Shown here: piece after piece, positions 49,254 through 52,200 of the stretch
Numbering within the stretch: the first letter of the stretch is position 1
Layout of the letters: the number at the start of each line of letters is the position of its first letter
From: Leptonemataceae bacterium
Lineage (GTDB): Bacteria > Spirochaetota > Leptospiria > Leptospirales > Leptonemataceae
Assembly (NCBI GenBank): GCA_965227295.1
Contig: OZ245742.1
Span: forward strand, 4,736,001 to 4,800,000
Direction of reading: 5' to 3'
Length of the DNA: 64,000 bases
Translations under genes and position numbers: made by a program
The notes under the pieces: generated by a model
Database searches by the model: none
What the model was told of the DNA's origin: nothing
Seen by the model: only the letters and a program-made list of their open reading frames with translations

Positions 49254-52200
49254 TCAGCCTGCACGTAAATTCTCAGGCGTCTTCCGGAGCCTCCATTTAT
49301 AGAATGCGCGGAATTTCCGTACATCTCCCCTGAATCCTTTCGTGCCCCCTGGTTCGTATGCTGTAGAATTCGGATCAATAACGTTCAACTTGTAATTGTA
49401 GATCCAGTTATCCTGCGCACCGTGCTGAACCATGACCAGTCCGGGATCAATCGCCGCAGACAAGATTTTCGCGAATACCGGTTCAATCCTGCGATTGTTC
49501 ACCTGGCGGGCTTCTTTCTTACCGGGAATTCCGCCTTTATAGATGCCGTGCAAATCGTAATCGCTGAAGAAACCTGTTCGAGCATTCTCCTTATGACGAA
49601 CGAGATGCGGAGCCTGCTTGCTAACCCGGTAACCCTTTTTATAGAGATACATCTTCACAGCTTCATAGACTTGCTTCAACTGAGCGACGTTTACCTCGCC
49701 CGTCCCCTGGGTCTCCGTGGCAATGCGTTGCAGCTTTTTGTTCTCATTGAGCTGTTTCGGATTGGATAGATCCGTTACGCCGTCCACCACGGACTTCAGA
49801 AATCCGTCGGAACGCCCCGGAGGGGGCGGGAAAGCTACCAATCCGACCTTCCCTTTGGGCGTCGAAACTCCCTTCAAGATCTCCTCTTCCAGCTTGAGCG
49901 TTTTCATTTTCAAAACTTCAGGCTTGGACTGAAGCTTGTTGATTGTTTTCTTCGCCTTCAGGATCTTTTTATACGCAGCTTCATTCGAATCACGAAATAT
50001 GATTACATACTTGCGACTGGTGGCAAACTCCTGAATCTTCGCATCGTGCTCCTCCAGCATTCCGCGGGAGCGCGGTGCTCTGGCAGAACCGGTCGCTTCA
50101 TAGATTTTCTTCGCTTCTTCATCACTCATGCCCCGCCCCTCCGACGGGGCCATTACGATTTTAAGGGCCTTTACCAGCCGCGCGATATGGCGATCCAGCT
50201 CTCGGTTGATTTTCTTTTTCTCGGGGCCGTCCTTCTTTTTCGCATCCAGAGCCTTAAGGCGGCGTATAATCTCCTTCAAGCGAGCATCCAGTCGCTCCAT
50301 TATGTTCAATGCCTTCTCTATCCGCACCAACTGCCGCATGTCTTTTTCCGGAGGCGGCCCTTGCTTCATCAATTCTTCCCTGTTCTTGTTAAGATCCCTG
50401 CGGTTGACACTAATCAGCCCCTCCAGCAAAGTCTCTTTGCTTCGAACTGCGATCTTCTCTTTATTCTTAATAAAGACCTGATGTCGTTCCCCGTTCTTCG
50501 TCTTAAAGAACTTGCGTTTCTTCCACCATTGAACGAGGCTCTGCGTCCCCTGTTTCACTTTGCGTTTCGCTTTCTTAAACAGAAGGCGGGCCCGTTTCAC
50601 CACGCGTTTGATCACCTTATCAATCGCGCGGTGAATGGGTTTCCGAATCTTATCAATGACCTTGCGCACCTTGTTCGCGATGCCGCCCAGGCCGATGAAG
50701 CGCGCCAGAAACGACAGCATCACCGTCAGCGCACGGCCCATGGTCTGCTCGACGTAGTTCGCCGCCTGGCCGATGCGACCGTGCACGATGTTGTTCAGCG
50801 AGGCCATCACCGATTGAACCAGTTCCTTGATCTGCTGCCAGCGCTCGATGAAGAACATGATCGTATTGTAAACCGCGAGCACGGCCTGCACGATGGCGCC
50901 CGCCGGATTCAACAGCGAAGCGATCTTCGTAATCGCGAGGACGATGATGCGATTGCGCACCCAGGCGAGCACCTCGTTAATAACCATTTGTTTAATGTTA
51001 CCGACCTCGCCCTTGATGTGCTCCCACAGGCCGGCCGGGCCTTTGGTAATCAGGATCTGCACGATCTCAATGGACTTCTCCACGGCGGTCATGATCGCTT
51101 CGCCGCGACGGCCCAGGCGTTTCACGATCTTGCGGCGGATGTCCTGCCAGGTAATCTGTAGAATCTGCGCGACGAAATGAAAGATGGACGGCAGGTCGAA
51201 TGACGTCGGCAGATCGATGCCGGCCTTTGAGAACGTGCCGAAGAGCCAGCCGAAGAGCGCGCGCTTGAAATGCATGGCGAAATTGCGCATGAACTGCATG
51301 AAGCCGAGTTTCACCGCGCCGATGAGATTGCGACCGAAGCGCACCGGATCGTCGAAGATCTTACCCAGCACGCTGAACACGGGATTCAGGAAACGAAATA
51401 CCGGGCCCTCCTGGCCGCCGACCAGGCGCAGGAATCCCTTAAAGATGAATTCTTTGATCTTACCGCTCACGTCCCGGCCGAAGTTCAACAGCTTGCGCGC
51501 CGTAGGACCGAAGGTTTCTTTCAGAATGCGCAGGTTCGTCGACGGCAGGTTAAAAATCGAAAGATCGCTTGCCGCTTTTTCGAGCAGGGTTTTCACGAAC
51601 GGCCAGGTGATGTTCAGCTTCTGAATGCGATCCCACAACCAGTTGAACGCCGTCTGAATCACCCGGGCCCGTTTCAATCGTTCGAAGAGGATGCCGCCGC
51701 CGGGCACCATGCCCATGAGCGCGCCGATGAAGTTCACGGCGTTGCGCGGCACCTGTTTTCCGGTGACGGGATTAAAACCCAGGATGAACTTAATCAGCTT
51801 ATAACCGGGCACACCGTCTGCGATCTCGTCGACTTTCTTACGCAGCGATTCCGGCAGGAAGTCCAGAACCCGCCGCACCCGGGGCGCGGATCGGGAAATG
51901 CCGGCCGCCGGCTTGCGGCGTACGGATGCCTGCTTAGCATTCTCTGATCGAACATTAGCAACCTGACGCTGTCGCGCTCCGCCCTGCTGCACGACGTGAG
52001 TGAGTTCGTGGGCGATGAGTTTGCGCCCCGAACGCGTGGACGGCTGAAACTCGCCGTCCGCGAAAAAGACGTCGGCTCCGATCGTAAACGCTCGCGCTCC
52101 GAGGCGCCGCGAAATGCCGCTCGCTTCGCCGCCGGCATGAATGCGCACGGCACTGAAGTCCGCGCCGAAGCGATCCTCAAAATAACTCCGCGCGTCGTCG

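Follow-up and report, generated by a model that had tools for sequence, protein, structure and literature searches.

We report that one gene in a 64-kb window of a Leptonemataceae bacterium (64,000 nucleotides, positions 4,736,001 to 4,800,000 of contig OZ245742.1; coordinates below are those of the window) encodes a protein, P0001, whose C-terminal tail belongs, as judged from its sequence, to the family of class II nucleotidyl cyclase toxins, as a compact and strongly diverged representative of a rare branch from environmental bacteria. Toxins of this class are of the edema factor (EF), CyaA and ExoY type, EF being the anthrax toxin. The tail is an exchangeable C-terminal warhead of a polymorphic toxin that carries the domain DUF4157. 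We are highly confident that the tail is homologous to class II cyclase toxins and shares their fold, and on balance we favour the fuller explanation in which a cyclase warhead on a DUF4157 carrier would be delivered in the manner of an extracellular contractile injection system (eCIS). The gene and the domain are located as follows.

49254..53018, minus strand: whole gene of P0001 including its stop codon, a DUF4157-type polymorphic toxin of 1254 amino acids (aa), defined by translation of the open reading frame (ORF), the Pfam eCIS_core match and at least 257 scaffold homologues
49257..50081, minus strand: cyclase-like toxin domain, aa 980-1254, defined by profile A1 against the PDB, hhalign, AlphaFold, Foldseek and composition

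Homology of the P0001 tail to class II nucleotidyl cyclases

An earlier note on this DNA had proposed that the last ~270 aa of the protein form a divergent EF/CyaA/ExoY-type domain, and this is borne out by profile searches, the predicted fold and residue conservation. When a profile of 24 aligned family domains (A1) was searched against the PDB, nine distinct sequences were returned at E<=10, all of them Vibrio ExoY modules or EF, the best being 8bjj_B (E 4.8e-5) and 7p1h_A (E 6.8e-4). Profile-profile comparison of A1 by hhalign with a five-sequence EF-family alignment, made up of EF plus four natural homologues that tblastn located on plasmids, gave a probability of 95.9% and an E-value of 5.9e-9; the alignment spans query positions 1-273 and EF 300-639, with 236 columns aligned by default and 251 at a lower threshold. 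The control alignments, to a reversed alignment and to an unrelated family, gave E-values of 0.71 and 0.21, respectively, and probabilities of 0.1-0.3%. At the profile level, hhalign and the PDB search with A1 thus indicate homology across the whole catalytic core.

The predicted structure points the same way. AlphaFold modelled aa 980-1254 with a predicted local distance difference test score (pLDDT) of 81.1 and a predicted template modelling score (pTM) of 0.81, and in a Foldseek search of this model against the PDB, ranks 1-24 among the matches listed were all EF, CyaA or ExoY structures (E 1.7e-5 to 1.6e-2), the rank after these falling to an E-value of 0.44 and a probability of 0.10. The EF core (~291-640; 1k90, 1k93 and 1xfu) is alike in fold with E 1.7e-5 and a template modelling (TM) score of 0.48-0.51 by query length. 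This comparison, which had been put forward as a check of the earlier proposal, came out in its favour with TM-scores that are moderate, and in the predicted model the characteristic fold of class II cyclases is present. Taken together, the PDB search, hhalign with its controls and Foldseek place the resemblance to class II cyclases far beyond chance.

The family is small. When 1.84 billion cluster representatives were scanned exhaustively with phmmer, 24 proteins were recovered at E<=1e-3, including P0001 itself, and three at E<=1e-10. In Pfam, class II cyclase toxins are represented by PF03497 (Anthrax_toxA), with a gathering score of 25 bits. Among the 23 relatives, P0005 alone passes this cut-off (25.9 bits), while P0010 (24.8 bits) and P0023 (21.1 bits) remain under it; furthermore, a precomputed PF03497 match is recorded for six of 24 longer relatives from the family-profile search, three of these six being RHS proteins. 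By model score, then, the P0001 domain lies outside the current PF03497 model, which its family touches. In a quick maximum-likelihood tree of 77 new-family rows and five EF-family rows, the new family is split from the EF family by a very long branch with 100% support, and the P0001 domain groups with P0003 and P0006 (support 94).

Several results weigh against this assignment. Pfam gives no PF03497 match for P0001 or P0002, even at E<=10, so that the Pfam check suggested earlier succeeded for one relative and failed for P0001 itself; NCBIfam has no match to the P0001 domain, phmmer with that domain alone found none in the PDB, and ESM Atlas gave it no usable match. The Foldseek TM-scores of the predicted model range from 0.33 to 0.51 by query length with a root-mean-square deviation of 11-13 A, and the P0001 domain is the longest terminal branch of the family tree (1.72). 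The empty look-ups, together with the mere 24 proteins of the phmmer scan, indicate that the domain is rare and very divergent. A rival view would put the likeness of the short motifs to EF, CyaA and ExoY down to chance, without homology, and the missing direct Pfam, NCBIfam and single-sequence PDB matches are what speaks for such a view. We find it hardly credible, since three independent lines of evidence agree (profile against PDB, hhalign with controls, and predicted fold), relatives reach the Pfam model, and the predicted catalytic positions are the family-invariant ones.

Some alignments were discarded on the way. An hhalign comparison of A1 with a single EF sequence aligned just the first 66 columns (E 1.7e-4), and a forced global alignment to a single EF put the metal-binding DxD wrongly; both were superseded by the five-sequence EF-family profile. 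A second HMMER stretch that set the family DxD on ARYDNQ of Vibrio ExoY was likewise judged spurious, as the profile-profile alignment places the DxD on the DYD of the EF family.

Conservation of the active site

The five motif strings quoted in the earlier note all occur in the order that it gave, within the last 268 codons of ORF 49254..53018, and together they span aa 990-1204 (window 49407-50051). The domain start given there, 50060, corresponds to codon 987; the family profile sets it at about aa 980 (50081). Each motif was located in the translation.

49983-50051, minus strand: motif EHDAKIQEFATSRKYVIIFRDSN, aa 990-1012
49899-49928, minus strand: motif SKPEVLKMKT, aa 1031-1040
49830-49847, minus strand: motif VGLVAF, aa 1058-1063
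49542-49568, minus strand: motif FSDYDLHGI, aa 1151-1159
49407-49430, minus strand: motif VQHGAQDN, aa 1197-1204

The EF strings with which these had been compared match EF from pXO1: FRPVN with R329, TKGLNVHGKS with K346 and K353, AGYIPF, TADYDLFA with D491 and D493, and VNHGTEQDN with H577 and N583. The classical EF numbers R329, K346, H351, K353, S354, K372, D491, D493, H577 and N583 all fall on the expected letters of that protein. Aligned with EF, the P0001 domain carries the following predicted active-site residues.

49992..49994, minus strand: R1009, counterpart of EF R329 by hhalign; Arg in 75/77; codon checked
49899..49925, minus strand: phosphate-binding loop K1032...K1037-M-K1039-T1040, counterpart of EF K346, H351, K353 and S354 by hhalign; codons checked
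49554..49562, minus strand: metal-binding DxD, D1153-Y-D1155, counterpart of EF D491/D493, with FFSDYDLHG on LTADYDLFA in the profile-profile alignment; codons checked
49422..49424, minus strand: H1199, counterpart of EF H577 by HMMER and hhalign; His in 77/77; codon checked

Conservation was counted over 77 non-identical family domains. In the phosphate loop, K1032 and a Thr or Ser at 1040 are present in all 77, and K1037 and K1039 in 76 each; D1153 and D1155 are each invariant (77/77). The residues that the earlier note had matched to EF, namely one Arg, two Lys, the DxD and a His, thus have aligned counterparts, each kept in 75 to 77 of the 77 domains. The two Lys are separated by six residues in both EF and P0001, and the Gly residues of the EF loop are replaced (G347 by Pro, G352 by Met), both as previously described. 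K1037 stands opposite EF H351, and a Lys is found there in ExoY-like sequences as well. Because the catalytic residues predicted from EF prove to be the invariant ones of an independent family, retention of the chemistry is strongly supported, and with the catalytic set kept (Arg, two Lys, Ser/Thr, DxD and His), the domain most likely cyclises nucleoside triphosphates (NTPs). We infer from this set that the P0001 domain is an enzyme, and we consider its cyclase activity likely.

Not all of the active site follows EF. The earlier note had paired the QDN of P0001 with the QDN of EF, and this pairing does not hold: the profile alignment sets W1205, a Trp in 76 of the 77 domains, against EF N583. 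An EF-family plasmid homologue from Salmonella also has no Asn at the N583 position. R1069 stands opposite EF K372, a position that is Arg or Lys in just 42/77, and in length the domain falls well short of the EF core, with ~20 residues opposite EF ~495-552 and an alignment that ends near EF 639. Two relatives, P0015 and P0016, have Ile in place of the EF R329 counterpart, and in their His loop the motif has changed to QHPTRDRW and QHPPRNRW. These members may have lost activity or shifted in function.

The family also has invariants of its own, G986 among them, and H1157 directly after the DxD (77/77), D1203 (74/77) and W1205 have no EF counterpart. These three, the loss of N583 and weak retention of K372, and the very long branch between the new family and the EF family would fit a protein that keeps the class II cyclase fold with diverged chemistry, i.e. 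another NTP-consuming or nucleotidyl-transfer reaction with a product other than a 3',5'-cyclic nucleoside monophosphate (cNMP). The EF residues that contact the metal and the triphosphate are all conserved, however, and we know of no other activity for this fold; we therefore regard diverged chemistry as very unlikely.

Compared with EF, then, the P0001 domain shows profile-profile homology over EF 300-639 with counterparts of R329, K346, K353, S354, D491, D493 and H577 and the same gap between the two Lys. It differs in a structural-alignment identity of ~12-14%, in its size (275 aa, or ~220 aa for the family profile, against ~350 for the aligned EF core), in the Lys that replaces H351 and in the Trp opposite N583. 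Moreover, P0001 largely lacks the segment ~495-552 and lacks everything beyond ~639, including the helical domain, and it has no protective-antigen-binding domain; its carrier is a DUF4157 protein, not part of an AB toxin. We take EF ~495-552 and the part beyond ~639 to be the calmodulin-contacting switch regions and the helical domain, respectively. With these parts largely missing, if their boundaries are as we take them to be, regulation must differ from that of EF.

ExoY-type proteins (Pseudomonas aeruginosa 5xnw and 7p1g; Vibrio MARTX 8bjj and 7p1h) provide the best sequence-profile matches in the PDB and share the K-x-K-S/T form of the phosphate loop, and the MARTX ExoY modules are likewise modules within a large multi-domain toxin. 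According to a review, known ExoY-like toxins come from gamma- and beta-proteobacteria and are delivered by a type III secretion system or as part of MARTX toxins (PMC9223806). The new family, unlike these, is found in Spirochaetota, Planctomycetota, Nitrospirota, Omnitrophota, Acidobacteriota, Gemmatimonadota, Campylobacterota and further phyla; it is borne by DUF4157, RHS and type VI secretion system (T6SS)-linked proteins, and no actin-binding region is identifiable in the domain.

A modular carrier protein

That the cyclase-like domain sits on a DUF4157 protein, as had been noted before, is confirmed by a match to PF13699. From N- to C-terminus, the parts of P0001 that precede the warhead are the following.

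52206..53018, minus strand: N-terminal region (aa 1-271) of low complexity; its composition, with 82% disorder-promoting residues, makes disorder probable
51975..52205, minus strand: DUF4157/eCIS_core, aa 272-348 (Pfam PF13699, E 2e-29; score of 102 bits, with the cut-off at 22)
50409..51974, minus strand: central all-alpha module, aa ~349-870, common to other DUF4157 toxins (at least 257 homologues)
50082..50408, minus strand: Lys/Arg-rich linker, aa 871-979, the start of the variable cassette, set by the end of scaffold similarity and by composition

The HExxH of the DUF4157 domain reads HELTH (aa 337-341, window 51996-52010). Near aa 58-80 of the N-terminal region there is a conserved KL..G...D..E.EAD motif (consensus of 73 homologues), and by analogy with the cargo of the particle AlgoCIS this region is a candidate loading sequence. 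The scaffold from aa ~254 to ~830-870 is common to at least 257 proteins at E<=1e-3, nearly all of them with DUF4157. For 119 scaffold homologues, BLASTP similarity to P0001 stops at a median of aa 828 (range 792-962), and the cyclase-like domain is present in none of these 119. Scaffold homologues bear other C-terminal toxin families of Pfam, such as PF13930, PF14410, PF14411, PF14424 and PF15604, and many of these warheads are from families that we take to be nucleases or deaminases.

Conversely, the cyclase-like domain is found on other carriers. It is also C-terminal on RHS proteins (locus L023, and P0028-P0030), on Ntox3-headed proteins and on another DUF4157 protein (P0019), and it further occurs on small proteins with N-termini that resemble signal peptides when judged by eye. 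A conserved carrier, alternative C-terminal toxins and a warhead shared with unrelated carriers are the marks of a polymorphic toxin, and all of them are found here.

Base composition breaks at the same place. The GC content at third codon positions (GC3) reaches 0.756 across the central module but just 0.651 across the linker and 0.593 across the cyclase-like domain, compared with 0.760 +/- 0.032 for 11 other genes of the window; the overall GC of the domain is 0.50. A sharp drop in GC3 inside one gene fits a polymorphic toxin with a cassette swapped in from a source of lower GC. The warhead was thus probably acquired by recombination from such a source, and the break suggests that the acquisition of the cassette was recent.

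The central module was modelled by AlphaFold (aa 350-900) with a pLDDT of 77.2 and a pTM of 0.46 as nearly all helices, and Foldseek found no fold match for it in the PDB (best E 0.66). It contains hydrophobic stretches near aa 691-707 and 763, and gives an SseC-like Pfam signal that is under the cut-off (E 0.02). In the literature this part corresponds to the 'long linker' of DUF4157 toxins, yet it is strongly conserved and helical.

The part order of P0001 is that of known DUF4157 eCIS toxins, the eCIS-associated toxins (EATs) of Geller et al. 2021 and Cgo1/Cgo2 of AlgoCIS: an N-terminus that in P0001 is probably disordered, DUF4157 with its HExxH, a spacer and a C-terminal toxin. Geller et al. 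describe DUF4157 as N-terminal and the toxin as C-terminal, with long linkers (PMC8213781), and a preprint gives Cgo1 and Cgo2 the same order of parts (10.64898/2026.05.27.728243). P0001 equally resembles RHS and T6SS (VgrG/PAAR-linked) polymorphic toxins in its conserved carrier, its swappable C-terminal cassette and the compositional break between them, and cyclase-like cassettes are themselves found on RHS proteins and beside VgrG and PAAR genes (L008 and L025). It differs from these toxins in that no immunity-like gene adjoins it and no RHS, PAAR or VgrG gene is nearby.

Delivery, immunity and the target cell

The gene next to the toxin is an ATPase gene, 13 nucleotides downstream.

47075..49240, minus strand: AAA+ ATPase, 721 aa (Pfam WHD PF22977, E 1.2e-30; AAA PF00004, E 1.3e-33)

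Its product has an N-terminal winged-helix domain and a classic-clade AAA domain, with the D2 domains of p97/Cdc48 as nearest PDB relatives. By analogy with Pvc15 (PMC11495950) and Alg15 (10.64898/2026.05.27.728243), the ATPase is a candidate cargo-loading or unfolding partner of the toxin. The preprint describes AlgoCIS cargo as having a disordered N-terminus that is required for loading, an optional DUF4157 and a variable C-terminus, with loading by the AAA+ protein Alg15 (10.64898/2026.05.27.728243), and an adjoining AAA+ ATPase gene is a feature of DUF4157 eCIS toxins as well (PMC8213781, 10.64898/2026.05.27.728243). Because both the architecture and the adjoining ATPase match eCIS cargo, an eCIS particle is the favoured route of delivery; we put this forward tentatively, at a little less than an even prospect.

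The structural genes of such a particle are the missing piece. The 53 ORFs of the window were scanned with Pfam (27 at E<=1e-3, 26 at E<=1e-5), and among them there is no sheath, tube, baseplate, spike or tail-fibre gene, which counts against eCIS delivery and sets P0001 apart from the known DUF4157 eCIS toxins; nor is there a PAAR, tail-terminator, RHS or VgrG gene among them. The earlier proposal that a contractile injection system delivers the protein is no more than plausible; within the window, only the DUF4157 protein and the adjoining AAA+ ATPase recall an eCIS.

With no contractile structural gene within 49 kb on one side and 11 kb on the other, the toxin and the ATPase could form a self-contained two-gene module that needs no contractile particle. 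The toxin might then be released by lysis or another form of export and might enter cells via its helical central module, which is large and conserved and has the hydrophobic stretches and weak SseC-like signal mentioned above. This module has no PDB fold match to translocation domains, however, and eCIS cargo genes sometimes lie away from the structural operon. DUF4157, moreover, is highly specific to eCIS loci in the survey of Geller et al., with an odds ratio of 2614 (PMC8213781), and on these grounds we consider the two-gene module unlikely and retain eCIS delivery as the preferred one.

An antiphage-defence reading of the toxin and ATPase pair was rejected. P0001 has no match among the PADLOC models, and the ATPase fits IetA/IteA just over its generic AAA part (aa 502-675 only; NCBIfam 120 bits against a cut-off of 510). 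A promoter and terminator scan of 46000-54200 found fewer sites than in shuffles.

What the warhead is aimed at may be approached through its relatives. Searching genomes with the family profile turned up 34 loci. They lie in metagenome-assembled genomes, with the sole exception of a complete Sulfurovum chromosome (Campylobacterota); other phyla include Planctomycetota, Nitrospirota, Omnitrophota, Acidobacteriota, Gemmatimonadota and Pseudomonadota. In 13 of the 34 loci a conserved gene of ~265 aa directly adjoins the toxin gene (14 copies).

L002:10656-11492, L008:10718-11512, L025:10632-11468 and 11 more: copies of the ~265-aa neighbour gene

Its product is rich in Cys, has no signal peptide and belongs to no Pfam or PADLOC family; its motifs are CPFC..PL.R.FDPFGLDG.WW, GPEVPYVIPR and WDFDL.PW. 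Its position makes it a candidate immunity protein, which would represent a new family. At L008 a VgrG gene follows the toxin and its neighbour, and L025 contains a ClpB/ClpV-like ATPase gene and a PAAR gene. The neighbour gene and the VgrG, PAAR and ClpV-like context resemble T6SS effector-immunity pairs, so that part of the family would be active inside bacteria, and this suggests activity there without a eukaryotic activator.

The same enzyme may serve another use in P0001: as an antibacterial toxin that needs no cofactor, it would kill neighbouring bacteria through the depletion of NTPs or an overload of cNMP. Producers among the relatives would be shielded by the cytoplasmic immunity protein; in the present genome the immunity gene would lie elsewhere, or the carrier would keep the toxin inert. 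In addition to the 13 loci with the neighbour gene and to the VgrG, ClpB/ClpV-like and PAAR genes, such a use would fit a domain without most of the EF regions that bind eukaryotic activators, again if their boundaries are as we take them to be, and would fit the many warheads on the same scaffold from Pfam families that we take to be nucleases and deaminases, which act on bacteria too. Antibacterial eCIS toxins have, furthermore, been shown by Geller et al. (PMC8213781). On the other hand, the window contains no homologue of the candidate immunity gene (six-frame ORFs, best E 2.5) and no small ORF between the toxin and ATPase genes, the immediate next gene being the ATPase gene, which is not immunity-like. 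The P0001 domain also sits with P0003 and P0006 in a separate long-branched subclade, and, according to the review, all characterised class II cyclase toxins need a eukaryotic cofactor (PMC9223806). We consider an antibacterial P0001 unlikely, if a serious contender. As to the earlier suggestion of a toxin possibly aimed at eukaryotes, the VgrG, PAAR and ClpV-like neighbours and the immunity-like genes at 13 of 34 loci of the relatives point at least equally to bacteria for part of the family; a eukaryotic target of P0001 is a real prospect that we nevertheless hold to be rather doubtful.

In the favoured explanation, the AAA+ ATPase would unfold the toxin and load it, with its disordered N-terminus, DUF4157 HExxH, ~520-aa helical module, basic linker and warhead in that order, into a particle resembling a phage tail, with genes that would lie outside the window, and the loaded particle would then inject it. 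Inside the target cell the domain would most likely convert NTPs into 3',5'-cyclic NMPs and pyrophosphate, such that the cell would be flooded with cNMP and drained of NTPs.

The spirochaete origin of the DNA, which the earlier note had surmised, is supported by NadA: all 12 organism-named matches among the 120 listed are Spirochaetota, mostly Leptospirales-like, the best being 78% identical. The contig measures 5.94 Mb. The genes around the toxin are signalling and housekeeping genes. The signalling genes (30966-32837, minus; 39828-41858, plus; 45739-46179, minus; 7109-8950, plus; 16738-18060, minus; 58262-60466, minus) include two class III adenylate/guanylate cyclases, one of them with dCache and HAMP domains, a PilZ protein, two SpoIIE-type phosphatases and a 7TMR-DISM/PAS protein with a histidine-kinase-like ATPase domain, indicating that the organism is equipped with an unrelated cNMP machinery of its own. 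An ORF of 271 aa (46225-47040, plus), immediately beyond the ATPase gene and on the other strand, has a lipoprotein-signal-like N-terminus as judged by eye and belongs to no Pfam or PADLOC family. A gene pair at 32915-34938 (minus), encoding an AAA ATPase (PF07728, AAA_5) and a VWA-domain protein, is unrelated to the toxin and recalls MoxR-VWA modules; its bpMoxR match is under the Pfam cut-off.

Among the relatives, giant proteins of 1400-2100 aa carry the cyclase-like domain internally or at the N-terminus at L005:286-12185, L017:6701-15966, L028:9086-13687 and L029:9185-13477, loci of Omnitrophota, Thermodesulfovibrionia and Sulfurovum. At the two Omnitrophota loci the next gene encodes a huge subtilase-domain protein, and upstream at L017 there are a group II intron reverse transcriptase and a Macro-NUDIX gene.

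Class II cyclase toxins are known from few pathogens, namely Bacillus, Bordetella, Pseudomonas, Vibrio and related gamma- and beta-proteobacteria, and those studied all depend on a host protein, according to the 2022 review (PMC9223806). Related observations have been made elsewhere: a structure clustering reports a cluster that resembles Anthrax_toxA, carries no annotation and is enriched in proteins of eukaryotes, especially algae (PMC10584675), and the C-terminus of a Tc-toxin TcC protein has been likened to ExoY by Phyre2 (PMC8528098). The words cyclase, ExoY and anthrax do not occur in the main texts of PMC8213781 and PMC11297309, and the Pfam table of the former lists Anthrax_toxA with no occurrence in eCIS operons and 1412 outside them (supplementary file 4, PMC8213781). 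In the open-access full-text literature we found no description of this cyclase branch. It is a compact class II cyclase branch, invisible to Pfam and so far undescribed, that serves as a swappable warhead in environmental bacteria, and it contributes a type of warhead that the largest survey of eCIS toxins does not record (PMC8213781, supplementary file 4).

The branch is small (~220-275 aa) and rare, yet phylogenetically widespread, and current Pfam and NCBIfam models overlook it. It keeps the full catalytic set on eCIS-type, RHS and T6SS-linked carriers while most of the activator-binding parts are missing. It raises three questions: can the fold do without a eukaryotic cofactor, do bacteria use cNMP overproduction or NTP depletion against one another, and how small can the catalytic core be? 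A bolder possibility, which we think quite unlikely, is that this is a minimal cyclase branch free of any eukaryotic activator and a general warhead of eCIS-type, T6SS and RHS systems in many phyla, in part antibacterial and paired with immunity, the spirochaete copy being without it. If so, the toxins that pathogens make and that calmodulin or actin activates would have branched off, as a specialised form, from an older NTP-cyclising weapon used between bacteria.

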